A stretch of 64,000 nt of DNA, from positions 83,285 through 147,284 of the IMG/VR virus record IMGVR_UViG_3300027807_000001. The stretch is one strand, 5' to 3'. Positions 5,160 through 37,631 of this stretch are shown in pieces (position 1 is the first letter of the stretch; each line of letters opens with the position of its first letter). The stretch comes from a virus. Its lineage: Duplodnaviria; Heunggongvirae; Uroviricota; Caudoviricetes. Under the pieces are notes generated by a model. That model was not told where the DNA came from and searched no databases. It was given only the letters and a program-made list of their open reading frames with translations. The translations under genes were made by a program, and so were the position numbers.

Positions 5160-5336
5160 ATGAATAGTAATAACGTATGTCTCGTTTGTCTTATTCATCC
5201 TGATTTGAAATGTAATTCATGTCAGAGACCATACTGCGGCAACTGTTGGATGACTCCGGATCGCAGATGTCACAACTCCCCATATGATCCAATAAGTAGC
5301 TGGAGATGGCCAAATACTCCAGAATTAGCCGGCTAA
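5160..5336 (+). CDS. Cys-rich micro-protein, divergent LCC/B-box-like member
   Basis: VCLVCLIHPDLKCNSCQRPYCGNCW. Confidence 0.55.
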   Translation: MNSNNVCLVCLIHPDLKCNSCQRPYCGNCWMTPDRRCHNSPYDPISSWRWPNTPELAG

Positions 5337-5500
5337 TATGAAAGCAGAAAAGATGTGCGACGACGGTGCACCCTGCACCTGGATTTCCGAAGAAGAGTAC
5401 GACGAGGAAGGAGACAGCCGCTTAGTTACTTTCTGTAGCAAATGCTTTCGCTATAAGAACAAAGTTAAAGAAAAAATCTCCCCTCCTGAGGATAAAAATC

Positions 5501-6058
5501 TTGACCAAGGAAGAATTCTGTAATCTTTCAGCTCATTCCCGTATAAAATATATCGGCTCAGACGAAGCACTAAAGGCAGTTCTCGTGCGTCACTCCAGCG
5601 TTGCCCTTACAAAGGGAGTTGTCGTGTCGTGGACAGTAGATAAGGCCAAGTCGAGTTGGAGCTCAGAAAAAGAACAAGGTCTTGTCCTCTACCTCTATAG
5701 CGGCCCGCTTGTGAAGAATATTATTCCGGAAGACTGGATTGTCGTTGATGCGAAGCGAGTAGATTTGGCTAGAGCCCGGGAAAAGAGGGCGGTAAAAGCT
5801 ACTGACTCTAGAGTTCGTCGAGAGCTTAATCAATTCTCTGAATCTTTCAGAAACATGAAGAATGTTAAGGCTCGCATCGATGAATGGCTAGAGAATGTTC
5901 CTTTCGCCTCAAGGTTTCAAATTTTAGCTAGTCTTACTGAAGAGCAAAAAGCTTGGCTAGATCTACTAGATCTTCCTCCTGAGGAAGTGATCGCGTTAAT
6001 TAAGAAAGCCAGCGGAGCACTCTCAGAGGGAAAGACTTTAGAGGTTAAGGATGAGTGA
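5501..6058 (+). CDS. hypothetical protein
   Basis: 185-aa ORF overlapping neighbours in operon fashion. Confidence 0.55.
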   Translation: MTKEEFCNLSAHSRIKYIGSDEALKAVLVRHSSVALTKGVVVSWTVDKAKSSWSSEKEQGLVLYLYSGPLVKNIIPEDWIVVDAKRVDLARAREKRAVKATDSRVRRELNQFSESFRNMKNVKARIDEWLENVPFASRFQILASLTEEQKAWLDLLDLPPEEVIALIKKASGALSEGKTLEVKDE

Positions 6059-6220
6059 GCTACCTTGCATTGTTAATAAGTCGCATACCCTGACCATAAC
6101 TGTTAAGAAAACAGACCAGGACCAAATAGGCTACTATTTTCCTGCCTGCGACTTCTGCGGGGCATCTCTTATAGGAGTAGAGCTTTGCGCCTTGCCTCAA
6201 CCGGTACCCCGGTAACCATT

Positions 6221-7324
6221 ATGAAACTTCCTATTCTATATAGACAAAACTCCAAGGGCACCCTCCAACAGTGGCACATCAGCGTGTCGGACAATAAAGT
6301 CACCACTGTGTACGGTCTATTTGGAGGCAAGATGCAGACCACAGTTGATGTCGTTAAAGAAGGTAAGAATGTCGGTCGGTCTAATGAAACCACTGCTTCA
6401 GAGCAAGCTGAGCTACAAGCGCAGCAGCAGTTCGCTGCTAAGCTGAAGGAAGGATATACACCTGACCGAACTCTTGCAGAGTCTACTAAGAACACCCTTG
6501 ATGCAGTAGAACCAATGTTAGCACATCCAATCGAAAATAAGTTAAAGTATGTTGTCTTTCCTGCGCTAGCGCAGCCCAAGCTAGACGGGGCTCGTTGTAT
6601 TGCTATTATGAAGAAGGGAAAGGTAAAACTTTGGTCTCGGACGCAGAAAGAGTATATTGCCTCTCCGCATATTGTTGCGGAGATTGAAAAGCTCCTGGGG
6701 CACAAGCAAGATTTGATTCTCGATGGCGAGCTATACAACCATGACTATAAGAAAGATTTTAACACTATCATGTCGCTGATTAAGCGGGAAGACGTACATC
6801 CTAATCATGAATTAGTCCAGTATCATATCTATGACGTTGTGGGCTCAGGCGTTTGGACTGACAGAACTAAAGTCTTAGCAGAGCTCGGGGTTGCTCGCTT
6901 CTGCAAGAAGGTCGAAACGGTTGTTGTTCGCTCTCAAGAAGAACTTGAAGAGTATCAAGCGGTATGCGTTGAGAATGGCTACGAAGGATGTATGTATCGT
7001 AACCCAGACGCTCTTTACGAGAACAAGAGAAGCTCAGGACTCTTAAAGGTCAAAGATTTTAAGGACGACGAATTTAAGATAGTTGACGTTGAAGAAGGTC
7101 GCGGCAAGCTCATGGGCCGCGTCGGTGCTTTCTATTGTGAGCTAAATGATGGAAGTGGTCGACAATTTAAAGCAAAGCCTATGGGGACATTAACCTACGT
7201 TGAGGAGCTTTGGAAGAATAAATCCGAGTGTCTTGGTAAGATGGCGACAGTTAAATATCAAAATCTTACACCTGATGGTATGCCGCGATTTCCTGTATTA
7301 AAGTGTATTCGCGACTACGAATAA
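6221..7324 (+). CDS. ATP-dependent DNA ligase
   Basis: KxDG motif (AQPKLDGARC), LDGELY, YHIYD, EGCMYR, LLKVK, OB-fold C-terminus; ATG chosen at 6221. Confidence 0.92.
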   Translation: MKLPILYRQNSKGTLQQWHISVSDNKVTTVYGLFGGKMQTTVDVVKEGKNVGRSNETTASEQAELQAQQQFAAKLKEGYTPDRTLAESTKNTLDAVEPMLAHPIENKLKYVVFPALAQPKLDGARCIAIMKKGKVKLWSRTQKEYIASPHIVAEIEKLLGHKQDLILDGELYNHDYKKDFNTIMSLIKREDVHPNHELVQYHIYDVVGSGVWTDRTKVLAELGVARFCKKVETVVVRSQEELEEYQAVCVENGYEGCMYRNPDALYENKRSSGLLKVKDFKDDEFKIVDVEEGRGKLMGRVGAFYCELNDGSGRQFKAKPMGTLTYVEELWKNKSECLGKMATVKYQNLTPDGMPRFPVLKCIRDYE

Positions 7325-7340: not shown

Positions 7341-7571
7341 ATGACTAACCGTCTCTGCTGTATTGTTAATCTAGACGTCGAATGCAGAGTATGTGGAAAG
7401 AAGTGGTGCGCCGAGTGCTGGGACACCTTTATCAGAAAAGATTCTCATAACGATTGTAAATGTACAAAAGACTCGACGCAAGAATTAACCTTCCGTGGAG
7501 TAGACCACGAAGGCAAGATAATATTTACTAGGGAGCCATTTAGGAAGCCAGAACGATATGTCTTTGAATGA
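7341..7571 (+). CDS. LCC/B-box-like zinc-finger micro-protein
   Basis: LCCIVNLDVECRVCGKKWCAECW. Confidence 0.7.
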   Translation: MTNRLCCIVNLDVECRVCGKKWCAECWDTFIRKDSHNDCKCTKDSTQELTFRGVDHEGKIIFTREPFRKPERYVFE

Positions 7572-7731
7572 ACTTTGTTGCCAAGTCAACCCTTTCTATA
7601 TCTGTAGCGGTTGTGGCTTTCGCCAGTGCCGTGATCATTGGCGACAATGGCGAAGTATTGACCAGACACACTTCGCACAAAACCAATGCGCAGTTACTAA
7701 GAGGCTCTTCCCCGTTATCTGGGTAGCTTAG
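7558..7731 (+). CDS. LCC/B-box-like zinc-finger micro-protein (not in ORF track)
   Basis: manual translation MSLNELCCQVNPFYICSGCGFRQCRDHW. Confidence 0.65.
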   Translation: MSLNELCCQVNPFYICSGCGFRQCRDHWRQWRSIDQTHFAQNQCAVTKRLFPVIWVA

Positions 7732-7754: not shown

Positions 7755-8132
7755 ATGTTCATCTTTGTCTACGGGACACTTCGCCGGGGTGGCAGCCTTA
7801 ATTATAAAATTCAGGACTTGAAAGAGCCTGTTGGAGTATTCCATACTCTCCCTAAATACACACTATACGATATGAGATGCCCTTGTCTGGCTAGAGGCGG
7901 GGGCACCAGCGTCGTAGGGGAGGTGTACGAAATACAAGATCTCGAGGAGATTGCAGATATACACAGCATGGAAGTCCACGCAGGCTACACCCTAGAGCAA
8001 GTAGAGCTAGAAGGCTTCTCAGAAGAGGTGCACGCATACTTTCAAGCGCCTGAGCCAAGCTGGGGGAACAACATTATCGATAGCGGCGACTATATTCGTT
8101 ATAAGCTGAATCGGTATGAAGAAAACCAATAA
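7755..8132 (+). CDS. gamma-glutamylcyclotransferase (AIG2-like)
   Basis: FVYGTLRRG signature, VVGEVYEI. Confidence 0.8.
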   Translation: MFIFVYGTLRRGGSLNYKIQDLKEPVGVFHTLPKYTLYDMRCPCLARGGGTSVVGEVYEIQDLEEIADIHSMEVHAGYTLEQVELEGFSEEVHAYFQAPEPSWGNNIIDSGDYIRYKLNRYEENQ

Positions 8133-8337
8133 AAGCAAGTTATGCTGTGAAGTTTCACCCAAGTATAACTGCGTTATTTGTAACCACAAAGAGTGTAGAG
8201 ATCATTGTGCCGTCTCGGGCTACAATCGGGGTAAACACTGGTTTTGGTATCCCTTTTCTGCAACAGAATCTCGAGATAATGTATTGACATTGGCAGAGAT
8301 CTGTCGAGAATGTTACCGTAAACATTACATTGACTAA
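8116..8337 (+). CDS. LCC/B-box-like zinc-finger micro-protein
   Basis: LCCEVSPKYNCVICNHKECRDHC. Confidence 0.65.
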   Translation: MKKTNKSKLCCEVSPKYNCVICNHKECRDHCAVSGYNRGKHWFWYPFSATESRDNVLTLAEICRECYRKHYID

Positions 8338-9423: not shown

Positions 9424-9720
9424 GTGGCAAAGAAGAATAGAGACGCTCTTTGTTGTCAAATCAACCAGGTAGGTACCTGCGGCGTTTGCCTCAAAAAGTT
9501 GTGCGAAGACCACGCAGGTTTGTCGTACAGTGTCTGTAAAAGCAATAAGTGTTATACGATATACGTGTACAGAGCTACTGAACAAGCTAAAGCGTTAGAG
9601 CTGCAGAAGCAAATGCAGCTAGAACGGATGCGTAAAGACAGAAGAACTCCGACATCAAAAGATATATCTTCATCAGGATATCGTCTTCTCAAGAAGATAG
9701 AGTCCCGGAAAAAGAAATAA
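9424..9720 (+). CDS. LCC/B-box-like zinc-finger protein
   Basis: LCCQINQVGTCGVCLKKLCEDH. Confidence 0.65.
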   Translation: MAKKNRDALCCQINQVGTCGVCLKKLCEDHAGLSYSVCKSNKCYTIYVYRATEQAKALELQKQMQLERMRKDRRTPTSKDISSSGYRLLKKIESRKKK

Positions 9721-9796
9721 CTATAAGCTATGCTTATTTCAAAATAAGACTCCTTCTCCTCACAAAAAGACCAGTTGACGATTTGTAAAATATAAT

Positions 9797-10285
9797 ATGG
9801 AAGATTTCTATAACGAAGAATTAATCAAGGAACGTGGCTTTAGATGCAAAGACTGCTCTCAATTGATGCATCAGCATACGTTCACCGGCGACTGGCATAA
9901 GACAGGGGCGGTAGATCGCTGGGGAAATCCCACAACTGAATTCCGTTATAAAAATAAATGCGACGAGAATTTTCGCGCGCCGGGGGTTTGGTACAGTGAT
10001 CTTCGATACCCAAACCTCTTATTGATCAATAAGAAGTGGTATCATTTTTCTCACAGAGCTTCTATGCTCGCACTTGTTGTAAAGTCAGATGTAGCAGTTA
10101 CAGTGGACAGGAGAGATTCTTTACAGTCCCCTAAGCCAGTCCTTATTGAGACGTACGGGGATATGTATAACTTTGCTGCTCAGCAGGGGATTTTAGAAAA
10201 GCTTAAGCGGCTCGTAGATGCGGAGACGTTTAAGTCTATGCAGTCAAAGTCTATCGAAAGGGCAATGAAAAAGTTATCCGCGTAA
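9797..10285 (+). CDS. hypothetical protein
   Basis: 162-aa ORF, N-terminal CxxC. Confidence 0.55.
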   Translation: MEDFYNEELIKERGFRCKDCSQLMHQHTFTGDWHKTGAVDRWGNPTTEFRYKNKCDENFRAPGVWYSDLRYPNLLLINKKWYHFSHRASMLALVVKSDVAVTVDRRDSLQSPKPVLIETYGDMYNFAAQQGILEKLKRLVDAETFKSMQSKSIERAMKKLSA

Positions 10286-10519
10286 TATGAGTGAGCGATG
10301 TCTGCCATGCCTTGTACATGATAAGAAGTGGTGCAGCCACTTTCTCTACAGAGCAGAATGTGCTGAATGCGAGTGGGATCAACTATACGCTCGACAGATC
10401 TTGTCCATCGCATGTCCAAAGTGCCATAAGTGGATAACTCCTAAGAAGTTACAGCTAGGGAAAGATTATTATTAGTATCGAATTTTGTACAATATCACTT
10501 AAGAACAAAGGGGAAAGAA

Positions 10520-11059: not shown

Positions 11060-11460
11060 GATCTAGACTGACCGACTACCTAAAGCTTCGGCGATGGGTG
11101 TGCTCAAATGGATATTCGGCAGTAAGAGCTAAGGTACTGAAAGCTCTTAATTGTACAACCGCTACGCAAAGAGAATAAAACCAGCAAAAAGGAACGCTAA
11201 TTAACGCGACAGTTAATTATTTCCAATTACATGGGAACATCGATCGGGCTCAATTGCCCAATGGTTAATTAGGGAGCAATCCCCAATAACTTCAAGGCTA
11301 AAGGCTTAAGGATCAAGTGATCAAGTTCACAAGGTATAAGGGGTAAGGGGTAAGGATCATCTGAATGGTATTACATTCAGAAACCCAAGAACAAGTTACC
11401 GTTTTTCCTTTTCTTCATCTGGAACTTCCTTGGCTTCCTTTTCGGGAGCGGGTCGTACAC
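11060..11460 (+). ncRNA. candidate ~400-nt structured RNA with AAG heptad repeats
   Basis: no credible ORF; several hairpins (UUCG and GCAA loops); nine AAG triplets at 7-8 nt spacing (11294-11354); downstream pyrimidine tract. Confidence 0.55.
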
Positions 11461-11493: not shown

Positions 11494-11679
11494 ATGGTGA
11501 GTAAATTAACTCCTCCACTCTGTTGCTTAGTTAATCCTGTCTTTATCTGTAGCACTTGTGACCAGGACTTGTGCGCGGAATGTATGAGCAAATTCCATAC
11601 AGAAAAGGAAGGGTGGCATCAAAACTGCATACCCCCGCGCACCTCACTATGCCCCTGCGCGTTAACAGGCCCAATATGA
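11494..11679 (+). CDS. LCC/B-box-like zinc-finger micro-protein
   Basis: LCCLVNPVFICSTCDQDLCAECMSKFH. Confidence 0.7.
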   Translation: MVSKLTPPLCCLVNPVFICSTCDQDLCAECMSKFHTEKEGWHQNCIPPRTSLCPCALTGPI

Positions 11680-11860: not shown

Positions 11861-12091
11861 ATGATGTGTATTAATTGTGGAGTAGAGATTCCGTCAGCTC
11901 GGCTGGAAGTGATCCCCGAGACAAAGACTTGTGTAAATTGTAGCGAGGTCCAGCCGTATAAGGCCATTGTCAACGGTTCTGCAAAAAATAAGAACTTTGA
12001 AGTTCAAATTATCCCAGGGGATAGCCCTATAGTAGATTATCTCGAAGAGCAGGGGCAAAGAGGATTCTCTTCATTGTCTGACGACGAGTAA
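11861..12091 (+). CDS. TraR/DksA C4-type zinc-finger protein
   Basis: CINCGVEIPSARLEVIPETKTCVNC. Confidence 0.75.
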   Translation: MMCINCGVEIPSARLEVIPETKTCVNCSEVQPYKAIVNGSAKNKNFEVQIIPGDSPIVDYLEEQGQRGFSSLSDDE

Positions 12092-12108: not shown

Positions 12109-12354
12109 ATGGCCGAAAAAGATTACATTTCCGTTAGAAAGGAGCAGCCTCTCTGCTGCATAATTAATCCTCGCTATATCTGCGATAAGTGCAGCTCACG
12201 CATCTGCGCAGATTGCTGCTACGTAAGTGATCAAGAAGTGATGAACAGTAATGTTAGTAACAAGCAGGTAACAATGCGACGAAAGGATCACATAGATACA
12301 TCGTGCATCGATTTAAATGACGAGATCCATTCAACATGGCGAAAAATAATCTAG
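12109..12354 (+). CDS. LCC/B-box-like zinc-finger micro-protein
   Basis: LCCIINPRYICDKCSSRICADCC. Confidence 0.7.
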   Translation: MAEKDYISVRKEQPLCCIINPRYICDKCSSRICADCCYVSDQEVMNSNVSNKQVTMRRKDHIDTSCIDLNDEIHSTWRKII

Positions 12355-15749: not shown

Positions 15750-16043
15750 ATGAATGAACAGACGCCTGCAGATTCGACGAACAAAGATAGTGATCTTGCA
15801 TTAGCAGAGCTCGGGCAAGCGGTGCATGCTCTAATACAGAACAATCTTCGGTATGAAGTGCTCATTCGCGCAGTAGTAGAATTACTAGAAGCTAAGAAGC
15901 TACCAGACGGCTCGTCTGTACTGACAACTGACGAACTGAATAATCGCGCAGGGGTCATTCGAAAAACGTTAATCGAGCAAGCTCAGAAGGCGCAGAAGGA
16001 TGCTCTACAGCCTTCTGCGGGAACTTCTCCGAAGAGTGCTTAA
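15750..16043 (+). CDS. hypothetical protein
   Basis: SD AAAGGA, 97-aa helical ORF. Confidence 0.55.
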   Translation: MNEQTPADSTNKDSDLALAELGQAVHALIQNNLRYEVLIRAVVELLEAKKLPDGSSVLTTDELNNRAGVIRKTLIEQAQKAQKDALQPSAGTSPKSA

Positions 16044-16233
16044 CCTTTGCTGCATAGTTAATACCACAGCGCGCTGCAACGGCTGTCACAAAAAATTGTG
16101 TATACGCCATGTAGAGCGTCAAACTCTTCTAGACCCTTCAGCAGAGGAGGGCCTATCACCTGAAGAATTGGAGAATGCCTTACTCTCCTGGTGCAGAGAG
16201 TGTTATCCTCCCAGAGTCGCAACGGACTACTAA
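16036..16233 (+). CDS. LCC/B-box-like zinc-finger micro-protein
   Basis: LCCIVNTTARCNGCHKKLCIRH; GTG start assumed. Confidence 0.65.
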   Translation: MLNLCCIVNTTARCNGCHKKLCIRHVERQTLLDPSAEEGLSPEELENALLSWCRECYPPRVATDY

Positions 16234-19344: not shown

Positions 19345-19464
19345 ATGATTAACCTCTGTTGTATAGTAAACCCATATTTATCATGCGACTCGTGCAATCA
19401 GAGGCTCTGCGAAGACTGCGTCAGTCCTCTCTGGAAATCTCATGGCCTAGAGGATCGAGGCTGA
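19345..19464 (+). CDS. LCC/B-box-like micro-protein; in-frame TGA followed by 32 more open codons to 19563
   Basis: MINLCCIVNPYLSCDSCNQRLCEDC. Confidence 0.6.
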   Translation: MINLCCIVNPYLSCDSCNQRLCEDCVSPLWKSHGLEDRG

Positions 19465-21966: not shown

Positions 21967-22119
21967 ATGGAATTGTGTTGTTTAGTCAAGGGCGTATCGA
22001 GATGCCATAAGTGCAGTAATTTGTTATGTCAAAATCATAGATTCCTCCATTGCGATGGAACTTACTATTACCATAAAGAATGTCTCGAAGAGATCGCCTC
22101 TGCGAAATTAAAGATTTAG
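21967..22119 (+). CDS. LCC/B-box-like micro-protein
   Basis: MELCCLVKGVSRCHKCSNLLCQNH. Confidence 0.65.
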   Translation: MELCCLVKGVSRCHKCSNLLCQNHRFLHCDGTYYYHKECLEEIASAKLKI

Positions 22120-24123: not shown

Positions 24124-24297
24124 GTGATACAGTTATGTTGCTTAATCAATACGCACATTCGGTGCGCGGAATGTCACGCACGACTTTGGTGTCGCGAATG
24201 TTATGAACGAGAGATGACCTCTCCATACAAAACGCATAGCCCCCTTTTCTGTGGTGACATTTGTCAGTTTGTGTATAATAAGAAGCGTGAGCGTTAA
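24124..24297 (+). CDS. LCC/B-box-like micro-protein (not in ORF track)
   Basis: QLCCLINTHIRCAECHARLWCREC. Confidence 0.6.
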   Translation: MIQLCCLINTHIRCAECHARLWCRECYEREMTSPYKTHSPLFCGDICQFVYNKKRER

Positions 24298-24299: not shown

Positions 24300-24419
24300 A
24301 TGGCATGTTTAGCATGTCTCGTTAATCCAATAAGGCGATGCAGGAAATGCCTAGAAATATTCTGTGATGATTGTTACTTCTTGACGACGAGACTGATTTC
24401 CGCTAAACTGCGGGCGTAG
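24300..24419 (+). CDS. LCC-variant micro-protein (not in ORF track)
   Basis: MACLACLVNPIRRCRKCLEIFCDDC. Confidence 0.55.
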   Translation: MACLACLVNPIRRCRKCLEIFCDDCYFLTTRLISAKLRA

Positions 24420-24685: not shown

Positions 24686-24838
24686 ATGAAACAGATACGG
24701 TTATGTTGTTTGGTAAATCGGATCTTTGAATGTGCACAATGCAAAACTAGCCAGTGCTGGCACTGTGCGATGAGAGAATTTTGCTGTCCACATCCCATGA
24801 GATTTCACCTAAATGAATATGTTATGGAACCAGATTAA
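24686..24838 (+). CDS. LCC/B-box-like micro-protein (not in ORF track)
   Basis: RLCCLVNRIFECAQCKTSQCWHC. Confidence 0.6.
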   Translation: MKQIRLCCLVNRIFECAQCKTSQCWHCAMREFCCPHPMRFHLNEYVMEPD

Positions 24839-26110: not shown

Positions 26111-26263
26111 ATGAATAAATCAGCGACAGATTTAGTATGCATCGTTAACGGGCATGATTGGTGGATTGTAGATCCTCACCTGAATAAATTCAGAGGTTAC
26201 TGGTGTAAACAATGCTTGCGAAAGACTGCTCGTCCGCTGACACTCGAAGACTTAGGTTTATAG
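26111..26263 (+). CDS. Cys/His micro-protein, hybrid of LCC and CxxxGHxW types
   Basis: LVCIVNGHDW..WCKQC. Confidence 0.55.
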   Translation: MNKSATDLVCIVNGHDWWIVDPHLNKFRGYWCKQCLRKTARPLTLEDLGL

Positions 26264-26266: not shown

Positions 26267-26431
26267 ATGTTTCTTAAAAACTTATGCAAGATATTAGGAC
26301 ATGATTGGGGTAAATTTATTACTTCCCGCTGCCGCCCGCGCTATGCCTATAGGAATTGTCGACGTAAGTGTGGAGCCTTTCAAACAAAAACAGGAATCGA
26401 TTACGGCACAACAATCATAACATATGGGTAA
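26267..26431 (+). CDS. DUF1660-like CxxxGHxW micro-protein (not in ORF track)
   Basis: LCKILGHDW..CRRKC. Confidence 0.55.
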   Translation: MFLKNLCKILGHDWGKFITSRCRPRYAYRNCRRKCGAFQTKTGIDYGTTIITYG

Positions 26432-26585
26432 ATCTTTACTGTGTCTCATTAAGGGGCATCAATGGTATTGGGCAGAATCAGGTAAGTACAGATGTGCGCA
26501 AGCAGGCGACGGATGTACCGCATATAGTAGATTTTTGTCGTTTAAAGGTAACGGGGAAGATGTGACCATAGCCCATTACGAATAA
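26424..26585 (+). CDS. DUF1660-like micro-protein (not in ORF track)
   Basis: LLCLIKGHQW. Confidence 0.5.
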   Translation: MGKSLLCLIKGHQWYWAESGKYRCAQAGDGCTAYSRFLSFKGNGEDVTIAHYE

Positions 26586-26782: not shown

Positions 26783-26941
26783 ATGAAACTTTGTTGTATA
26801 GTTAATACTTATAGCTTTTGTAAGCTATGTGGTTTAAAAGTATGTCGCCAATGTATAATTATTCAAGGTAAATGTCCTAAAAGTATCTGGAATGAAATTC
26901 TCTGGAATGAAATTCATAGATGGTATATAGTGGAGAGATAA
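26783..26941 (+). CDS. LCC/B-box-like micro-protein
   Basis: MKLCCIVNTYSFCKLCGLKVCRQC. Confidence 0.65.
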   Translation: MKLCCIVNTYSFCKLCGLKVCRQCIIIQGKCPKSIWNEILWNEIHRWYIVER

Positions 26942-26942: not shown

Positions 26943-27143
26943 ATGTCATAGGAATTATGTTGTTTAGTGAATGGCAGTGAAGAGTGCTATAAGTGTAAAG
27001 ATAAAATTTGTACGGATCATTGCAGAGGGTTTAACGAAAAATTGCCGTGCAGATGTGGCACTTGTAATGATACCGAATTAAGGACCTATTGTCTTCCATG
27101 CGTTGATAAATTTCAACCAGCAGATTACTACGAGGCAGATTAA
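26943..27143 (+). CDS. LCC/B-box-like micro-protein with in-frame TAG at codon 3
   Basis: SD GGAGA, ATG TCA TAG GAA TTA TGT TGT; ELCCLVNGSEECYKCKDKICTDHC. Confidence 0.55.
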
Positions 27144-27696: not shown

Positions 27697-27703
27697 ATTT
27701 GTT

Positions 27704-27777: not shown

Positions 27778-27781
27778 ATTT

Positions 27782-28153
27782 ATGAGAATGTGGAAAGTAG
27801 ATCCAACTAAGATGTGTCGTAAACACCTACTAGGCGAGCATGTCGAGATGCATATGTTCGTAGGCTCCCTCAACAAAGGGACTATAAAGGATTTTCCAAA
27901 TTCTCGCTTTGTGAAAGAGGGGCTGGTTGAGGTCCACTACCTTAAAGCCCGCCATGAAGAGTTAGTGGCTGAGATGGGGAGGAGGGGTTACGTCCACAAA
28001 ACTCCTTTGCCTGCTTTCGAAGAATACGTATGTGGTTCAATAGACGTTGCCGCTAACGAAAAAGAACTTGGGCGTAGATGTGGCGACTGCCAGTTTGAAA
28101 ATGATGGCCTCCCCTCATCGTCCCCAAGAAAACAGAATATTCACAAGAGGTAA
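27782..28153 (+). CDS. denV: pyrimidine dimer DNA glycosylase / endonuclease V family
   Basis: MRMWKVDP..MCRKHLLGEHVEMH..LKARHEELVAEMGRRGYVH. Confidence 0.75.
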   Translation: MRMWKVDPTKMCRKHLLGEHVEMHMFVGSLNKGTIKDFPNSRFVKEGLVEVHYLKARHEELVAEMGRRGYVHKTPLPAFEEYVCGSIDVAANEKELGRRCGDCQFENDGLPSSSPRKQNIHKR

Positions 28154-28156
28154 GGG

Positions 28157-28792
28157 TTGAATTACAACGAGTGGCTGATTAAGCAAGCGGTAGAGAAGGC
28201 TAAAGCAGAAATAAATTCTGCGGAGTCTGAAGACGACGCAGTTGAGGCGCCAGAAGAAGCGGCTGCGCTTGACCCTCGCAAAGATAAAAAAGTTTCAATG
28301 AATCGGCAGGTCCTAGAAGGAGATCCCTTTTTCGCCATCCGAAAAAATCAAGTTAAGTGGCCTACTATTCGTAAGGTGTTCATGGACGATGACAATGTCG
28401 CCCAAATTAAAAAGTATGCGACAGGGAAAGGGCGCTCTATTGTATTTCTTGATGGGACTTACGAAACCAAGCTTAACCGGTATGTAGGTAAGTCTCCTGT
28501 AGAGCGCGCCGTCTTCTTTGAGTTTATGCTCAAGGATAAAAATATCTCTGGCGCCATCTTTATCTTATGCTGGATTGGTAATTTTCATAACGGGTGTATT
28601 TTTCATGCGGCGCCCCAATTTCCTCAGATGAACTGTTGGGTCGAAGCGCTTGGCCAAGAAAAAGCGACCCTGTTTTTTGAAAAACACGCTTTCAAGGTTT
28701 ATAAGGAGATCGTTAATATTCTCCATGGCGGTGGACCTATTATAGACGATGAGGTTCGCAAGTTCATTGAGAACGGTAATAAGATAATTTAG
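28157..28792 (+). CDS. hypothetical protein
   Basis: 211-aa ORF; N-terminus similar to ORF 28891. Confidence 0.6.
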   Translation: MNYNEWLIKQAVEKAKAEINSAESEDDAVEAPEEAAALDPRKDKKVSMNRQVLEGDPFFAIRKNQVKWPTIRKVFMDDDNVAQIKKYATGKGRSIVFLDGTYETKLNRYVGKSPVERAVFFEFMLKDKNISGAIFILCWIGNFHNGCIFHAAPQFPQMNCWVEALGQEKATLFFEKHAFKVYKEIVNILHGGGPIIDDEVRKFIENGNKII

Positions 28793-28890
28793 AGCTGTCC
28801 GTAGGGGCCTTTCTATCGCTTCGAGTCCCTTACCAACCCCGGAGCAGAGCGATGTCAGGGTGAGGGCGGGCAGCTTGGCTTTAAGAAATT

Positions 28891-29244
28891 ATGGAAAATT
28901 ATAAACAGTGGGTAATTAAACAGGGGATAGAGAAAGCTGTTAAATCGCTTTCTAAAGAAGCAGGCGGCAAGGAAGTTGTAGAGCTAGTGAAAGATCCTAC
29001 TTGGCAAAAACTACGGGAGTCATTTGTAGGCACCTGGAAGAAAACCCCTGATGAAAATGTGCGTAGGCTTAAGCAGTTCCTGGGCACTAATCCCAGTATA
29101 GACAAGTTACGCATTGTACTTAATTATCTAACTTGTAGCGGCTTTCGCACAGGAAATATTAAGCACGCCGGTGCTGATAAATTACGCGATTGGGTAAGAA
29201 ATCGTCTAGCGGAGAAGAGGGAGAAACTAAAACAGGGCTCGTAG
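28891..29244 (+). CDS. hypothetical protein
   Basis: 117-aa ORF; NYxxWxIKQxxEKA shared with ORF 28157; stop inside tRNA-Arg(UCU). Confidence 0.6.
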   Translation: MENYKQWVIKQGIEKAVKSLSKEAGGKEVVELVKDPTWQKLRESFVGTWKKTPDENVRRLKQFLGTNPSIDKLRIVLNYLTCSGFRTGNIKHAGADKLRDWVRNRLAEKREKLKQGS

Positions 29245-29309
29245 TCTAACGGCAAGGCGACCGCCTTCTAAGCGGTATCATGAGAGTTCAATTCTCTCCG
29301 AGCCCACCA
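29235..29309 (+). tRNA. tRNA-Arg(UCU)
   Basis: ACCGC-CTTCTAA-GCGGT, CCA. Confidence 0.9.
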
Positions 29310-29313
29310 CTTT

Positions 29314-29487
29314 ATGAAACTCTGTTGTCAGATTAATCCATTTATCTGGTGTTACAATTGTAGTTTGTCTTTCTGCATTAGCTGTACGGATGATCACATG
29401 AATACTCACTCTAAGGGAACACGTATTCGATGGGATTTTCATTGCAACAGAAACTTAGATAATCCATTAGAGTTTTATAAATCCTAA
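29314..29487 (+). CDS. LCC/B-box-like micro-protein (not in ORF track)
   Basis: MKLCCQINPFIWCYNCSLSFCISCTDDH. Confidence 0.65.
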   Translation: MKLCCQINPFIWCYNCSLSFCISCTDDHMNTHSKGTRIRWDFHCNRNLDNPLEFYKS

Positions 29488-29701
29488 AGGTCTAGTGAGA
29501 TATGAGTTTACAGTCTGATTTGTGTAAGATTCTTTATCATGATTGGCAGTACGAAGGTCCAGACACGTATTGCGCAAGATGTGATAAAGGATGGGTCTAC
29601 GAAGAAGATTGGGATGAATATTGTAAACGTCTTTCGCAAGCAGAGAAAAATCAGCACCAAGGTAAATTACTTTTAGCCTCTTGTCGTCAAAATAAAGAAT
29701 A

Positions 29702-29776
29702 GCGTTTGTAGCTCAATAGCAGAGCGCTCCCTTGACATGGGAGAGGTAGTAGGAGCGTTACCTACCAGGCGCACCA
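29702..29776 (+). tRNA. tRNA-Val(GAC)
   Basis: CTCCC-TTGACAT-GGGAG, CCA; T-loop AGCGTTA. Confidence 0.85.
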
Positions 29777-29782
29777 ATTTAT

Positions 29783-29859
29783 GGAACCGTAGAGGAGCGG
29801 CCGTCCTCATCTCCCTGTCACGGAGAGAAACGCGGGTTCGAATCCCGTCGGTTCCGCCA
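29783..29859 (+). tRNA. tRNA-Asp(GUC)
   Basis: TCTCC-CTGTCAC-GGAGA, CCA. Confidence 0.9.
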
Positions 29860-29866
29860 TTTTATA

Positions 29867-29942
29867 GCTCAGTTCGCCTAGCGGTATGGCGCCTCTCCTA
29901 CACAGAGGAATAATGTTGGTTCAACTCCAACACTGAGCACCA
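29867..29942 (+). tRNA. tRNA-Val(UAC)
   Basis: CCTCT-CCTACAC-AGAGG, CCA. Confidence 0.85.
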
Positions 29943-30058
29943 CTTTATAGTATGCACTGAGTGAATGATCGATTCTTCCTAGGAATTCACTTGGGCTATA
30001 AACTTCCACCTGCCCCATGGAAGAGAGTAGGTGTGATTCCTACTTGGGGCACAGATTT

Positions 30059-30118
30059 GCGGGATTAGCATAAAAGTAATGCGCGTCATTGCCAATGATG
30101 ATAAAGGGGAGCGTTACC
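30059..30118 (+). pseudogene. 3'-truncated tRNA-Gly(GCC)
   Basis: CGTCA-TTGCCAA-TGATG intact; breaks inside T arm; no 3' acceptor strand. Confidence 0.6.
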
Positions 30119-30168
30119 ATCTGGAGCGAAACACCTAACGTGGGTTACTATCTGATACTTTAATAAGT

Positions 30169-30585
30169 ATGGATAAGAAATGTAAGAAGTGCGGGGAAGT
30201 AAAGCCGTTGGAGTCGTTTAACCAGCGGAGTGATCGTAAAGATGGTCGCGTAAGTAATTGCAAGGATTGCCATCATAAGTACGCCAAGAAGGTCTATAAG
30301 AACAACAAAGGGACTTTTATTGGCCGCGTTGCAAAGGGGCACAAAGAGCGAAGACAGTTCTTTTACGATTTAAAGGATAATAAACCCTGCGCCGACTGTA
30401 AAGTTGTGCACCGTTACTTCGCGCTAGACTACGATCATCGAGACCCTTCACAAAAAAGTTTTAACGTATCGCAGTTAATACAATGGACGAACAAAGAAAA
30501 GATTCTCGCAGAGATCGCGAAGTGCGATCTCATTTGTTCTAACTGTCACAGATACCGTACTTTCAAACGTAAGATGCAGGTATAG
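30169..30585 (+). CDS. HNH homing endonuclease
   Basis: CKKCGEVKPLESF..CKDC; PCADC..LDYDHRDP..KCDLICSNCHRYRT; stop inside tRNA-Gly. Confidence 0.82.
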   Translation: MDKKCKKCGEVKPLESFNQRSDRKDGRVSNCKDCHHKYAKKVYKNNKGTFIGRVAKGHKERRQFFYDLKDNKPCADCKVVHRYFALDYDHRDPSQKSFNVSQLIQWTNKEKILAEIAKCDLICSNCHRYRTFKRKMQV

Positions 30586-30649
30586 TTTAGTGGTAAAATT
30601 CCTCGTCGCCAACGAGAGGATACGAGTTCGATTCTCGTTACCTGCTCCA
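30576..30649 (+). tRNA. tRNA-Gly(GCC)
   Basis: GCAGGTA/TACCTGC acceptor, TCGCCAA loop, U73, CCA. Confidence 0.82.
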
Positions 30650-30655
30650 ATTTAC

Positions 30656-30730
30656 GTCCTTATAGTGAAATGGCAATCATAGGAGTTTCCTAAACTCTTG
30701 GTCTGAGTTCGACTCTCAGTAAGGACACCA
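30656..30730 (+). tRNA. tRNA-Arg(CCU)
   Basis: GGAGT-TTCCTAA-ACTCT, CCA. Confidence 0.88.
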
Positions 30731-30756
30731 ATTTAGTTCCGCAGGTATGAGGAGCT

Positions 30757-31080
30757 ATGTATTACAATCCGGAGCAGTACGGACTTGAAATCGTCGAAGA
30801 GTTAAACGATCCAGACGCGAGCTATTCCTTTGATATGTTCGTCATTTGGATTCGCAAGGTGGACGGAGAGTTGTTCTACGGAACAGATAGTGGCTGCTCC
30901 TGTCCTTCTCCTTTCGAAAAGATCTCTGGGGTCGAGGAGCTAACGCGACTAGGAGATCTGGCTTCTTTCGAAAGAGAACTTATCGCTTGGGGCTCGAGAT
31001 ACTTTGACGCTCAAGAGCTTCAAGCTGTCGTCGATAAAGTTCGAGTAGCAAAGATGTATAAGTGTACATTGCTACTATAA
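30757..31080 (+). CDS. conserved phage hypothetical protein
   Basis: SD GAGGAG; YSFDMFVIW..GTDSGCSCPSPFE. Confidence 0.7.
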   Translation: MYYNPEQYGLEIVEELNDPDASYSFDMFVIWIRKVDGELFYGTDSGCSCPSPFEKISGVEELTRLGDLASFERELIAWGSRYFDAQELQAVVDKVRVAKMYKCTLLL

Positions 31081-31101
31081 CGGAGTCGAAAGACTCCAAA
31101 T

Positions 31102-31177
31102 GGGCCTTAGGTGTAGTTGGGTGCACGTCTGCTTTGCAAGCAGAAGGTAGCGAGTTCGATCCTCGCAAGGTCCACCA
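31102..31177 (+). tRNA. tRNA-Ala(UGC)
   Basis: G3:U70, TCTGC-TTTGCAA-GCAGA, CCA. Confidence 0.9.
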
Positions 31178-31182
31178 ATTTA

Positions 31183-31257
31183 GCACTCGTAGCTCAATGG
31201 CAGAGCGGTCTCTCGATAGGGGATTGGTTCGTGGTTCAAGTCCACGCGGGTGCACCA
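31183..31257 (+). tRNA. tRNA-Ile(GAU), second copy
   Basis: TCGATAG loop, GCACTCG/CGGGTGC acceptor, CCA. Confidence 0.8.
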
Positions 31258-31535
31258 TATGAAATGTCAGAAGTGTCAAGATGAAGGGCTTAGAAGTAGA
31301 CTTTTTGTCAAACAAGTAGATAGTCCCGCTACAAGTGTTCAGGTGTATTATGATGAGAATGGTAAACTGCATCAGCACGATCCAGTAGGAATGTCTACAG
31401 ACTATAGATGTAGTAATGGTCATTCCTGGACAGCATACGCAACTCCATTTTGTTTTAACTGCAGTGAATAGCAATATAAGGTTCTGAGGGAGTGCCTTAC
31501 CCAACGGTATAAATAACCAGTCCCTCTCCAATTTT

Positions 31536-31609
31536 GCGGGTGTAGTTCAATGGTAGAATACCTTCCTTCCAAGTAGAAGACGCCGGTTCGATTCCGGTCA
31601 CCCGCTCCA
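31536..31609 (+). tRNA. tRNA-Gly(UCC)
   Basis: CTTCCAA loop, imperfect anticodon stem, U73, CCA. Confidence 0.8.
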
Positions 31610-31686
31610 ATCTCTAGGCTGGCTGCATCCTAGGATGGTGTTAATACGCCGAAAGTGACGGACTGTAAGAGTCAGCTTCAATTTAA

Positions 31687-31759
31687 GCCTACGTATTCCA
31701 ACGGCAGAGAAAGTGGTCTAAGAAGCCATAAAGTAAAGGTTCGAATCCTTTCGTAGGCA
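31687..31759 (+). tRNA. tRNA-Leu(AAG), short variable loop
   Basis: GTGGT-CTAAGAA-GCCAT; A34; no encoded CCA. Confidence 0.8.
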
Positions 31760-31767
31760 AATTTTAA

Positions 31768-31843
31768 GGTCCTGTGGCGGAATGGCATACGCGGTCGTCT
31801 CAAACACGATCTTTTGAGAGTTCGACTCTCTCCAGGACTACCA
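31768..31843 (+). tRNA. tRNA-Leu(CAA), short variable loop
   Basis: GTCGT-CTCAAAC-ACGAT, CCA. Confidence 0.85.
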
Positions 31844-31849
31844 ATTTAT

Positions 31850-31924
31850 AGCGGGGTAGAGCAGTGGTAGCTCGCAAGGCCCATAACCTTGAGGTCGGTG
31901 GTTCAAATCCATCCCCCGCAACCA
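31850..31924 (+). tRNA. tRNA-Met(CAU), initiator-like
   Basis: 1:72 mismatch, CAAGG-CCCATAA-CCTTG, CCA. Confidence 0.88.
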
Positions 31925-31927
31925 TTT

Positions 31928-32116
31928 ATGGAATTATGTTGCATGCTTAATCCGTTATTTCAGTGTCGTTACTGTTTAAATAAAGTATGCGACGTTCATG
32001 TAAGAAAAGAGATGGTCTTAATTTATTACGAATATCTAGCAACAGCTAAAGCGCTAGGAGCAGATATTTCGTTGTTCTCGTATAACTGTGGTTGCCAAGA
32101 TGATAGCGAAATATGA
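31928..32116 (+). CDS. LCC/B-box-like micro-protein
   Basis: MELCCMLNPLFQCRYCLNKVCDVH. Confidence 0.65.
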   Translation: MELCCMLNPLFQCRYCLNKVCDVHVRKEMVLIYYEYLATAKALGADISLFSYNCGCQDDSEI

Positions 32117-32295
32117 ATTGCCCTGTTTGTGGGTATGTCCTTCAATTTATACCATGGGATGGATTGTCTGCTTCGGATGAAATATGTCCATCCTGTGGAA
32201 TTCAGTTCGGATACGACGACGCTGCTGGTGGAAATGTTCAAGCGCGTGAAGAAATTTATAAGCGTTGGCGAATCAAAAATAAATAACAATTTATT

Positions 32296-32369
32296 GCCGC
32301 GGTAGTTCAAAAGTAGAACAGGGCTTTCATAAGGCCAAAACGAAGGAGCATTACCTTCTCGCGGTACCA
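32296..32369 (+). tRNA. tRNA(CAU), elongator Met or Ile2
   Basis: TTCATAA loop, CCA; T-loop AGCATTA. Confidence 0.78.
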
Positions 32370-32373
32370 ATTT

Positions 32374-32520
32374 ATGAATCTATGTTGTATTGTTAACGGA
32401 GATGCATGTGTTTGTGGAGAACTAATGTGTGACGATCATTGGTGGTATCCTGAAATCAATCATCCTCATTGGACTAGTGAAGGGCAATGTCGTAAAATAG
32501 TAAGCGCCACCAAGGTGTAG
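32374..32520 (+). CDS. LCC micro-protein (not in ORF track)
   Basis: MNLCCIVNGDACVCGELMCDDH; stop inside tRNA-Thr. Confidence 0.6.
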   Translation: MNLCCIVNGDACVCGELMCDDHWWYPEINHPHWTSEGQCRKIVSATKV

Positions 32521-32577
32521 ATAACGACATAATTGTTTCGTAAACAATAGAGCTGAGTGTGAGTCTCAGTGGTGGCT
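32506..32577 (+). tRNA. tRNA-Thr(CGU)
   Basis: ATTGT-TTCGTAA-ACAAT; T-loop TGTGAGT. Confidence 0.75.
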
Positions 32578-32694
32578 CCGATTTATGTTATTAACAGAAG
32601 CGATTTGTAAAATTTTAGGGCATGCATTAGAGGACCTGGATGTCGCGTATTTCCCAAGAGAGATACAAAATGATGGAATTGTACATCAATAACC

Positions 32695-32769
32695 GCTGGT
32701 ATAGTGATAATGGCAGCACAAACCCTTGGTAAGGGTTAAGTTCGAGTTCGATCCTCGGTACCAGCTCCA
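32695..32769 (+). tRNA. tRNA-Thr(GGU)
   Basis: AACCC-TTGGTAA-GGGTT, CCA. Confidence 0.88.
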
Positions 32770-35889: not shown

Positions 35890-36524
35890 TATCTTTCTCC
35901 AGCCTTAAAAATAGAAATTGAGGCCGTGCGACTTTGTAAATCTATTCTATCTGCTTTAATATGGACGTCTGTGGGTAATCTTTCTTCTAAGAATGTTACA
36001 ATTCTCGCTAGCGTCTGTACCTCGTCGAGGTCAGTAGAAATAGAGTCAGCCTCCCAACTACATTCAACTTTAATTTTATCGGGGGTTAGAGTAAATGTGG
36101 CAGATACAGGCGACAGTGCCCCTAATTTCATGGCGGGCATAGCTTCAAAGAATGCGGGTGATTGGACAGGCGCCACGTACGGGGTATTCTTGTATGACCA
36201 GTATCCTTCTCCCATAGTGCCAGGTTGATCTCCGGGCTTATTGGATCGTTCTCTCTCTTTACCTACCTTATTTTTATCCTCTTGAAGCTTCTTCTTTCGA
36301 TTCCAATCCTTGAAGCGATTCCAGAGTTCCTCTTGATTGACCGGCTGAGGAAAGCCGCTGAAGTTTTGACTGTCTCCAAGATAATCATGATAGGCTTGAG
36401 ATGGATCACCCCGGTGGGATTCTTCGCCGTAGTCATCTTTTTCGGATAACTGCTTCGTCATTATTTCGTCGGTTTCCCAGCTATCGTATGTTGCGGACTC
36501 TATATTTATATCGCTAGGGTTCAT
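35889..36524 (-). CDS. hypothetical protein
   Basis: 211-aa ORF in - strand operon. Confidence 0.6.
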   Translation of the reverse strand: MNPSDINIESATYDSWETDEIMTKQLSEKDDYGEESHRGDPSQAYHDYLGDSQNFSGFPQPVNQEELWNRFKDWNRKKKLQEDKNKVGKERERSNKPGDQPGTMGEGYWSYKNTPYVAPVQSPAFFEAMPAMKLGALSPVSATFTLTPDKIKVECSWEADSISTDLDEVQTLARIVTFLEERLPTDVHIKADRIDLQSRTASISIFKAGER

Positions 36525-37453
36525 ACTTCTCCTTTAGTTATATGAGGGCATACTCCACCGTTCATCCGTTTGCCGTGGTTACAATTTGCACAAAGTAGCT
36601 GAAAACGTGTTTGGTCCGGATTCTTGAGTATGTACCGCGCGCTATTTGAGCCGCAGCTTCTATTTACTTCTAAGTGTCCATCGTTATTGATGTGATCGAA
36701 ATTTAGGAATAGTAGCTCCTCTACAGAACATCCGGGGCAGTTGCATACATTACCCAAAACCCTCTTGGCCCGAACTACAATTTCCTGACCAATGGCGCTT
36801 TGAATTCTTACACACTCTCGACACTTTCCTTTTGGAGTTCGACCAACAATTGAGAAAATATGGCCATGAACACAATGCTGGGTTGTAGGACGGTTACCTC
36901 TTTTTCTTGGAAGACGTTTGACCGCTTGTGTAGAAGAAGAGCTAATGTGAGGACAGATCCCATTATTCATCCTTTTCCCGTGATTACAATTCGAGCAAAG
37001 TAACTGCAGTTTTGTTTGCCCTGGATTATTTATGACAAAGCGAGCGGAAACGTTAGCGCTTTTGTAATTTTCCATAAATCCATCATTATCCACATGGTCA
37101 AATTCCAAAAACTGAGATTCTTTTTCGTCACACCCAGGGCAGTTACATCTACTACCAAGAAGACTTTTTGCCAAAGCGATACGTTTTCGATTAAAGAGCT
37201 TGGTTTCTATTGCTTTACAAGCAACGCACTGTCCTAAAAGAGTGCGACCGCGTACTGAAAGAAGGTGCCCGTGACTACAAACAAGCTTTTTAACTACACC
37301 TTTCTTAGGATGAATTTTACCTCTCGTAGTAACACGCTGTCTTTGACACTCATTACATCCATTACTCTTACTCCGACCAACAATAAAGGTATCATGCCCT
37401 TTGGGACAAAATTGCTTTTTTAGGTAATCCCAGTTCCTTTCTCTTGTACCCAT
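36521..37453 (-). CDS. tandem double-HNH endonuclease
   Basis: two copies of LGxxCNCPGC..L[EN]FDH[VI]xNDG..LQLLCxNCNHGKRMNxGxCPH, plus CxxGH motifs. Confidence 0.75.
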   Translation of the reverse strand: MGTRERNWDYLKKQFCPKGHDTFIVGRSKSNGCNECQRQRVTTRGKIHPKKGVVKKLVCSHGHLLSVRGRTLLGQCVACKAIETKLFNRKRIALAKSLLGSRCNCPGCDEKESQFLEFDHVDNDGFMENYKSANVSARFVINNPGQTKLQLLCSNCNHGKRMNNGICPHISSSSTQAVKRLPRKRGNRPTTQHCVHGHIFSIVGRTPKGKCRECVRIQSAIGQEIVVRAKRVLGNVCNCPGCSVEELLFLNFDHINNDGHLEVNRSCGSNSARYILKNPDQTRFQLLCANCNHGKRMNGGVCPHITKGEV

Positions 37454-37457
37454 AAAT

Positions 37458-37631
37458 TTAACCTATCCATACATAGTCGTGTTCATGGCCCCATATCACT
37501 TTACGTCCAGGAATTATCGCGTCGTCAAGGGGGTTCCAAGCGCTAATATCCCTTCCGAAGTCATCAGCACAAACCTTCTTATTGCACTTTTGACAGTACC
37601 ACTCTGGATTAATTAGACAGCAAAGCTTCAT
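37458..37631 (-). CDS. LCC/B-box-like micro-protein (not in ORF track)
   Basis: MKLCCLINPEWYCQKCNKKVCADD. Confidence 0.65.
   Translation of the reverse strand: MKLCCLINPEWYCQKCNKKVCADDFGRDISAWNPLDDAIIPGRKVIWGHEHDYVWIG

Follow-up and report, generated by a model that had tools for sequence, protein, structure and literature searches.

A family of predicted RING-like zinc mini-proteins expanded in the accessory arm of a large peat-moss bacteriophage

The LCC genes of the window

The DNA analyzed here (the window) is a stretch of 64,000 nucleotides (nt) that covers bases 83,285-147,284 of the IMG/VR virus record IMGVR_UViG_3300027807_000001, which is 210,348 bp long and has direct terminal repeats. 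The source is an uncultured, contractile-tailed phage of 210 kb from peat moss with a GC content of 44%, which was assigned to the bacteriophages because of a tail-sheath homologue, a transfer-messenger RNA (tmRNA) and tRNA genes that encode their CCA ends. Many short open reading frames (ORFs) of its plus-strand accessory arm carry near their N-terminus a Cys-rich motif opened by Leu-Cys-Cys. These genes, named here the LCC family, very probably represent a new phage-restricted family of zinc mini-proteins with a predicted RING-like fold.

The original prediction had listed 17 such ORFs in the window. All of them were found at the starts given, and each translated to L-C-C-x-[VIL]-[NKS]-x3-4-C-x2-C-x4-5-C-x2-[CHD]; many copies had been said to fall below 60 amino acids (aa), as was the case for nine of the 17. 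When the pattern LCC..[NKS].{3,6}C..C was searched in all six frames of the window, 16 matches were obtained versus none in 50 shuffles, and the reversed-pattern control also gave 0 matches. The copy that the pattern misses, the 17th, is that at 32374, for which the shorter spacing noted earlier was confirmed. A hidden Markov model (HMM) profile built from the motif region detected 63 members in the whole genome at E<0.01, 61 of them within the 21-116 kb stretch of the plus strand and two on the minus strand. They are 38-139 aa long (median 68 aa) and occupy 6.1% of the genome DNA. The window holds 19 of them, namely the 17 listed ORFs and those at 5160 and 24300. The latter two had been proposed, together with 6051, 26111 and 10287, as divergent variants, and only they turned out to be true members; of the others, 6051 and 26111 were assigned to a second family, and the status of 10287 is doubtful.

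The first member on the plus strand (5160..5336, 58 aa, HMM E 1.1e-5) has a CxxC first knuckle (CLVCLIHP...) and the spacing C-x2-C-x7-C-x2-C-x4-C-x2-C. It is followed by 7341..7571 (76 aa, E 1.4e-11) and 7558..7731 (57 aa), which overlap by 14 nt; the second of these gave the best HMM score of the family (E 3.8e-15). Further downstream lie 8116..8337 (73 aa, E 1.3e-10), in which Ser replaces Asn, 9424..9720 (98 aa, E 2.9e-9), with a GTG start and a basic tail, and 11494..11679 (61 aa, E 3.2e-13). Member 12109..12354 (81 aa, found by HMM) belongs to a subfamily with an H-x4-C distal pair, and 16000..16233, also found by HMM, encodes 77 aa from the ATG at 16000 or 65 aa from the GTG at 16036. 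Two members are minimal, with only 39 aa: 19345..19464 (E 9.2e-14) and 24300..24419 (E 1.2e-8). The second of them has a CxxC first knuckle and six Cys only, and may bind fewer than two zinc ions. Just upstream of it, 24124..24297 (57 aa, GTG start, E 2.4e-11) shows five residues between ligand pairs 2 and 3. In member 21967..22119 (50 aa, by translation and HMM) Lys replaces Asn and the stop codon abuts a tRNA-Arg gene.

Five of the members start right behind a tRNA. The ATG lies 4 nt past the CCA of the tRNA at 24608-24678 in 24686..24838 (50 aa, by translation and HMM), 4 nt past that of tRNA-Leu in 26783..26941 (52 aa), 4 nt past that of tRNA-Arg in 29314..29487 (57 aa) and 3 nt past that of tRNA-Met in 31928..32116 (62 aa), the last three identified by translation. 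The fifth, 32374..32520 (48 aa, E 2.2e-3), starts 4 nt past a tRNA (32296-32366 plus CCA) and owes its shortened spacing to a C-x-C second pair. For the copy listed at 26943, the motif was intact and the start proved unusable, with a nonsense codon at position 3 (ATG-TCA-TAG, MS*ELCC...). The ORF that holds the motif by translation (26952..27143, plus strand) has no in-frame ATG, GTG or TTG before the Cys-Cys, and this copy is probably a recent pseudogene, or else depends on read-through. The only minus-strand member in the window, 37458..37631 (57 aa, E 1.8e-14), has Asp at ligand 6 and lies directly downstream of a 2129-aa gene.

Members 16036, 19345, 21967, 26783 and 31928 are nested within longer mechanical ORFs. 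Since the longer ORFs of 26783 and 31928 overlap tRNA genes, the internal ATG is a plausible start for both. At least members 16000 and 19345 were left uncalled among the gene calls of a public assembly.

Conservation at the protein level

Codon usage at the conserved positions was tallied in the 44 strict members. All six Leu codons were used at the conserved Leu, and TGT and TGC were split roughly 50:50 at all five Cys positions examined, near the genome-wide usage; codon positions 1 and 2 of Cys and codon position 2 of Leu were invariant. This synonymous variation supported the earlier claim that the conserved unit is the protein and not a DNA site.

Furthermore, the ratio of nonsynonymous to synonymous substitution rates (dN/dS) was calculated for two orthologue pairs. 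The counterparts of the window member 16036 in two related contigs, L032 and L033, gave a dN of 0.15, a dS of about 2.0 and a dN/dS of 0.07, and an LCC member of the conserved minus-strand arm gave a dN/dS of 0.15 between contigs L020 and L024. Both values, which include the tails, are far below 1. As an internal control, neighboring real genes yielded values of 0.02-0.27 and spurious overlapping frames values of 1.8-4.9. The LCC ORFs are real genes that are individually kept by purifying selection. In a comparison with two related strains, X3 and X4, 40 of the 366 differences were listed, and among these, 18 fell in the 228 nt of member 7341 (13 nonsynonymous and five synonymous). All 18 were located from codon 18 on, leaving the core Cys untouched, with the loss of one distal Cys.

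Ligand geometry and predicted fold

The geometry of the putative ligands was analyzed in 212 family sequences. A spacing of eight residues between pairs 1 and 2 and of four between pairs 2 and 3 was found in 210 of them. The first pair was an adjacent Cys-Cys in 202 sequences and CxxC in ten, and ligand 6 was Cys in 126, His in 80 and Asp in six. When the ten CxxC variants are aligned with the other sequences, the last Cys of their first pair falls on the second Cys of the Cys-Cys pair, and the usual knuckle has therefore given way to two neighboring cysteines. A distal [H/C]...C pair, of the subtypes H-x4-C, C-x2-C or H-x6-9-C-P, followed in 164 of the 212 sequences after a median of 13 residues (loop of 6-26), and probably closes a second zinc site. 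The tails had been described as unrelated. Their variable part was indeed observed, but the distal pair present in most sequences and the conservation of the tails between orthologues (dN/dS as above) do not fit that description; as this pair lies inside the tail, the variable part is largely a loop within the fold.

Two members were modeled by AlphaFold2 (AF2) with family alignments, the 81-aa protein of 12109 and the 57-aa protein of 7558, with predicted local distance difference test (pLDDT) scores of 79.1 and 77.5, respectively. Both models showed one topology, a short helix over the Leu-Cys-Cys, a beta-hairpin with the CxxC knuckle and a helix that begins at the third pair. When the 57-aa model was compared with PDB representatives, a great majority of the 50 top-ranked entries were RING, U-box, SP-RING or B-box domains, and the alignments covered residues 2-57. 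The best matches were the Ubr1 RING (Z 4.4, root-mean-square deviation 3.1 A, 54 aligned residues), Nse1 (Z 4.0) and TRIM69 (Z 3.8); Z ranged from 2.7 to 4.4 in the top 50, and a shape search of the ESM Atlas returned RING clusters with template-modeling (TM) scores of 0.47-0.55. The best Z obtained for the 81-aa model by VIA-align was 3.3. A homodimer prediction with zinc scored 0.19 versus a mark of 0.42, which is evidence neither way.

At the sequence level, weak matches to ANCHR-like B-box, B-box, AN1, IBR and RING domains were obtained. Among 48 members tested against Pfam, PF22586 was matched by six (best E 4.6e-4) and PF00643 by four (best E 5.7e-3), all weakly and below the curated threshold; the majority of the members matched neither. 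The RING-like binuclear treble clef is an established fold class (PMC4506424). The resemblance to the B-box proposed originally is upheld at the level of this class, which includes the B-box, by both ligand spacing and predicted fold, but not as strict membership: the best Pfam E is 4.6e-4, the first knuckle is CC instead of CxxC and Z does not exceed 4.4. Due to these low Z values, the models lend support at the level of topology and do not prove that the proteins are B-box or RING domains.

According to the models, the first ~30 residues would fold as a zinc finger of the cross-brace (binuclear treble-clef) type that resembles RING and B-box domains. Zinc 1 would be held by the Cys-Cys at the N-terminus, which is CxxC in a few members, and by the third pair at the helix start, and zinc 2 by the CxxC knuckle of the beta-hairpin and the distal His/Cys...Cys pair; this assignment of ligands is our inference. 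The loop from ligand 6 to the distal pair (median of 13 residues) and the C-terminal tail would then make up the variable surface.

Two other explanations of an N-terminal Cys motif were considered and rejected. A lipoprotein lipobox was discarded, as a signal peptide is absent and the motif lies at residues 2-10, and so was a dual palmitoylation of the eukaryotic type, as the virus is a bacteriophage.

Distribution of the family

When 1.84 billion representative proteins were searched with the profile, 327 metagenomic clusters matched at E<=1e-3. Their proteins are almost always 57-160 aa long, with M-x(1-4)-LCCxVNP at the extreme N-terminus. Additionally, a degenerate DNA pattern located the family in eight further IMG/VR contigs, one of which carries about 30 copies in 14.8 kb; in two of the eight, the tail sheath is 53-55% identical to that of the phage studied here.

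The family was not found in PHROGs, NCBIfam or PADLOC, only weak matches were seen in Pfam, and a literature search returned no description of it. Member 7341 had no match at E<=1 in 50,697 deposited phage genomes (tblastn), among which phage G should be included, and neither had 10 kb of the window when compared with deposited phages by megablast. A pattern scan of 185,579 species-representative genomes produced 52 single matches, about the number expected by chance according to our own estimate, none of them with the full motif, and therefore no clue to a prophage or a host. A word-based homologue search returned nothing for member 7558 alone and, with the family alignment, proteins of the same genome and one other only. 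The loci retrieved with the ligase gene of the arm came from unrelated genomes of 25% GC without the LCC family, and a cluster look-up of ten relatives returned no names. The statement that this is not a described phage family thus agrees with the searches, nothing above weak Pfam matches being present in the curated phage and protein libraries. Judged by these sequence comparisons, LCC is very probably a new, phage-restricted and lineage-specific family absent from curated libraries.

Age and turnover of the copies

The identity between paralogues within the genome reached 61% at most, and for 50 of the 63 members the best match was found in another phage or metagenome. For 57 of the 63, at least 80% of the length could be aligned with a protein encoded elsewhere, in another phage or a metagenome, at an identity of 26-55%. 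The low identity between paralogues together with the best matches elsewhere indicated that the expansion is old and that its copies have been maintained individually.

The contigs L032 and L033 are syntenic with positions 11.5-23 kb of the window. The orthologues of 16000/16036 in them are 56-59% identical to it, and the positional counterpart of 12109 in L032 is 36% identical, with neighboring genes at 56-65%. One LCC member of L032 has no counterpart in this genome. In three relatives, an LCC member is inserted between two conserved genes of the minus-strand arm that are separated here by a gap of only 12 nt. In strains X3 and X4, which are 95-99% identical elsewhere, sequence of another length replaces positions 9637-10217, 21080-21608, 23047-23546 and 24368-24568; the first of these replacements takes in the 3' end of member 9424, and one of the replaced segments lies inside the cluster of Asn and Gln tRNAs. 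The accessory arm is therefore a mosaic of cassettes even among close strains. In strain X4, an in-frame insertion of 18 nt that resembles the start region of 7558 was also seen at position 7548, inside the overlap of 7341 and 7558. Contigs that encode the proteins P0065 and P0010 were obtained from two runs of one sample series, those with P0065 being 100% identical to the window, and yielded no further strain differences of use.

The tRNA array, start sites and transcription

A tRNA array extends from 20099 to 32769 on the plus strand, with 32 genes detected by ARAGORN and five by Infernal alone. The Infernal-only tRNAs (20907-20979, 21539-21610, 24608-24678, 27622-27693 and 32296-32366) score above the Rfam gathering score, which brings the tRNA count of the window to about 37. 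Six LCC members, two genes of the second family and other Cys-rich mini-genes are interleaved in this array.

Nearly every tRNA gene encodes the CCA, which is followed by an A/T-rich conserved trailer (CCA-ATTTA, CTTTA or GATTTA). Where an ORF follows the tRNA, its ATG belongs to this trailer (CCA-ATTT-ATG), 3-6 nt past the tRNA. Ten ORFs of the window start in this way: five LCC genes (24686, 26783, 29314, 31928 and 32374), one second-family gene (26111) and four others, three of them small and Cys-rich; in the six LCC and second-family genes the distance is 3-4 nt. Possibly the trailer directs processing and at the same time defines the 5' end of the mRNA. Leaderless translation was considered as a peculiarity of the tRNA-adjacent copies and rejected, since a Shine-Dalgarno-like motif was found in just 20 of the 63 LCC members and its weak use is general here. 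A scan for sigma-70 promoters and terminators in the region did not give results clearly above those of shuffled sequences.

RNA contigs from moss metatranscriptomes were also compared with the window. Two runs held contigs 100% identical to the window, which covered positions 8095-8298 (part of member 8116), 21998-22198 (part of member 21967) and 10179-10392 (the doubtful ORF 10287). The RNA of by far the greatest depth in the region was non-coding (11073-11426), downstream of a DUF6847 gene, with contig depths of 45 and 66 versus 0-6 elsewhere.

Genes of the accessory arm

A Pfam scan of the plus-strand arm identified a DNA/RNA ligase, an RlaP-type RNA-repair nucleotidyltransferase, a RuvB-like ATPase and an HSP20 protein. 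The arm further encodes HNH and DUF559 endonucleases, a phiEco32-like COOH-NH2 ligase with an amidotransferase and several other small zinc proteins, and the tmRNA is also located there. The label 'Acb5' given to a neighboring gene by a precomputed annotation was not reproduced by the Pfam scan and was discarded.

The tail sheath is encoded on the minus strand (L016:4545-6878; genome positions 191829-194162), and its closest cultured relatives, at 28-29% identity, are the sheaths of the cluster-C (Bxz1-like) mycobacteriophages. These phages also carry a tmRNA and about 30 tRNAs. A mycobacterial host is disfavored by the GC content of 44%.

Function of the family

The LCC genes are single-gene cassettes set among the tRNAs, the tmRNA and the RNA-repair and DNA-metabolism genes of the plus-strand arm, old paralogues that purifying selection keeps and that are yet gained, lost and replaced between relatives. 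Each copy would most likely act as a zinc-stabilized binding module for its own host or phage macromolecule, in takeover of the cell or in counter-defense, and no catalysis would be expected. This combined explanation, stand-alone RING-like zinc scaffolds serving as diversified binding modules of the accessory arm, was given a probability of about 0.6. Diversified binding is suggested by the fold class, the stand-alone architecture, the old and maintained paralogy with turnover and the context of the accessory arm. The RNA-repair genes and the tRNA array are compatible with an anti-defense or host-binding role, although they are not diagnostic of it. A stronger version is put forward only tentatively: the 63 paralogues might constitute a binder library, in which one rigid RING-like zinc scaffold displays a variable loop and tail. 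Each copy would inactivate or divert its own host factor, in many cases a defense protein, and gain and loss of cassettes would reshuffle the repertoire from strain to strain.

Several observations weigh against the explanation by diversified binding modules. The structural Z values are low in absolute terms (at most 4.4), and Foldseek searches with the 81-aa model in PDB, AFDB clusters and BFVD returned nothing at E<=0.001, with weak B-box/RING rows only. A recognizable fourth ligand pair is absent in 48 of the 212 sequences, and the adjacent Cys-Cys is an unusual first knuckle. The ratio of 13 nonsynonymous to five synonymous differences in member 7341, with the loss of a distal Cys, is roughly neutral, and copy 26952 has a nonsense codon. 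The metatranscriptome contigs constitute weak evidence for transcription and none for translation. Finally, the isoelectric points (pI) vary and tend to the basic side (median 8.2), which suits nucleic-acid as well as protein binding.

Because of this basic bias, the main rival is that the proteins are nucleic-acid-binding zinc fingers, either regulators of transcription or translation or structural DNA/RNA-binding proteins. A pI above 8 was calculated for 34 of the 63 members, some tails are strongly basic (net charge of +14 in 9424), six members sit inside the tRNA array, and the zinc-ribbon expansion of phage G, the only precedent in the literature, was interpreted in this way (PMC7824862). 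Nevertheless, the pI of ten members is acidic and that of 19 close to neutral, the folds that come nearest (RING, U-box and B-box) serve mainly as protein-interaction modules, and no basic surface motif is shared and conserved outside the ligands. We consider this rival unlikely.

The turnover of the copies would also be expected if they were selfish mini-genes of the moron type that spread as cassettes, later decay and hardly benefit the phage; the core would then be conserved only because folding requires it. The gain, loss and replacement between close relatives, the insertion between conserved genes, the nonsense codon of one copy and the near-neutral ratio of 7341 would all be explained in this manner. 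However, the dN/dS of 0.07 and 0.15 was obtained over whole orthologues with their tails, recent duplicates were not found (paralogue identity of 61% at most), and no associated mobility gene was seen. The 57 members that align over >=80% of their length to proteins elsewhere, at 26-55% identity, also speak against cassettes of this kind, and we judge them improbable.

From the RING/U-box-like predicted fold, it could be supposed that the proteins act as RING domains of the E3 type or as decoys, engaging the ubiquitin-like conjugation or defense machinery of bacteria (E2/E1-type). This was considered very improbable: neither a ThiF-type E1 nor a JAB protein was detected in the phage genome (the positive controls for these worked; those for UQ_con and Prok-RING_4 were silent and thus uninformative), and a single pathway would not need 63 diverged copies. 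Lastly, the view that what is repeated is an element of the DNA or RNA (a promoter, processing or recombination site) with incidental ORFs, to which the copies placed right after tRNA 3' ends, next to the conserved ATTTATG trailer, might point, is refuted by the codon data, with free third positions and six Leu codons in use, and is further contradicted by 61 of the 63 copies being in frame on the coding strand, a dN/dS far below 1 and the absence of matches to the reversed pattern.

Comparison with known systems

The spacing of the type 1 B-box is C-x2-C-x7-12-C-x2-C-x4-C-x2-C-x3-6-H-x2-8-H. Pairs 2 and 3 match it exactly in 210 of the 212 LCC sequences and the CxxC variants would reproduce it, the fourth pair being heterogeneous in the family. 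As in B-box and RING domains, the putative ligands follow the order C-C or C-x2-C, x8, C-x2-C, x4, C-x2-[CH] and then a distal [HC]...C, and the predicted beta-hairpin knuckle precedes a helix that starts at the third pair. By contrast with the B-box, the first pair is an adjacent Cys-Cys in 202 of 212 sequences, the third and fourth pairs are separated by a long loop of variable length (6-26 residues), and the fourth pair is missing in about a quarter of the sequences. The LCC proteins also differ from RING and B-box domains in being stand-alone proteins of 40-140 aa, encoded by a bacteriophage, and from RING E3 ligases in that the partner E1 (ThiF) or JAB was not found in the same genome. 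They would represent a RING-like predicted fold with an adjacent Cys-Cys first knuckle outside any ubiquitin context.

The T4-type phages have hyperplastic regions of small early host-takeover genes from many unrelated families. The accessory arm resembles these in its long same-strand runs and in its small accessory genes of fast turnover amid tRNAs and homing endonucleases; unlike in T4, one family supplies 63 of the small genes. The Bacillus phage G carries a ~35-copy zinc-ribbon expansion, which its authors called unprecedented, and the encoded proteins were proposed to be transcription or translation regulators or structural DNA/RNA-binding proteins (PMC7824862). In both phages, a tiny zinc-binding protein (predicted in the case of LCC) has expanded into a large set of paralogues in a large genome. 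In contrast, the LCC proteins are of another predicted fold class, with six to eight ligands in a RING-like arrangement instead of the four-Cys ribbon of phage G, and their copy number of 63 is almost double, in a genome of under half the length.

A single undescribed family accordingly takes up 6% of a phage genome and extends to hundreds of metagenomic clusters while being invisible to curated libraries. If the copies are specific binders, they would be ready-made, small, zinc-stabilized inhibitors or adaptors of bacterial proteins and a model for the evolution of phage repertoires. A binder library, if it exists, would give bacteriophages an equivalent of the multigene families by which large eukaryotic viruses control host range and evade immunity.

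A second mini-protein family and other features

Three plus-strand genes belong to a second family that is not LCC: 6051..6215 and 26111..26263, both assigned by hhalign, and 26424..26585, absent from the earlier list and found by family comparison. The ATG of the second gene lies 3 nt past a tRNA-Trp. Only ~16 N-terminal columns align with LCC (hhalign probability of 72%). The pattern of the second family is L-x-C-[LIV]-[IV]-[NK]-G-H ... C-x2-C. The two families are alike in the N-terminal motif and in their genomic niche, including the position right after a tRNA, but the C-x2-C-x4-C-x2-C core is lacking in the second, whose proteins probably have a single zinc site each. The kinship of a Cys-rich ORF of 62 aa at 10287..10475 on the plus strand (CLPCLVH...) is doubtful, as it has another spacing and falls below the HMM threshold.

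The accessory arm is generally rich in tiny Cys proteins from several families. Unrelated small ORFs of the zinc-ribbon type were observed at 11861-12091, 19214-19348, 24947-25237, 31259-31471 and 32113-32286, the first of which is DksA/TraR-like according to a precomputed Pfam match. At 2030-4454, the phiEco32-like COOH-NH2 ligase (PF14395, E 4e-39) lies near a class-II glutamine amidotransferase-like gene, with a 182-aa ORF between them, and the pair may form a module for the modification of a small molecule or peptide. Two Rfam matches below the gathering score were seen on the plus strand of the tRNA array, a raiA RNA at 25704-26024 (61 bits, gathering score 101) and a CyVA-1 sRNA at 28796-28872 (37.7 bits, gathering score 41.4). 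Most of the large minus-strand proteins of the phage have no PHROG or Pfam match; the 2129-aa ORF at 37632-44021 (minus strand), after which the minus-strand LCC gene follows within 4 nt, gave a weak HEAT-repeat hit as its sole Pfam match.

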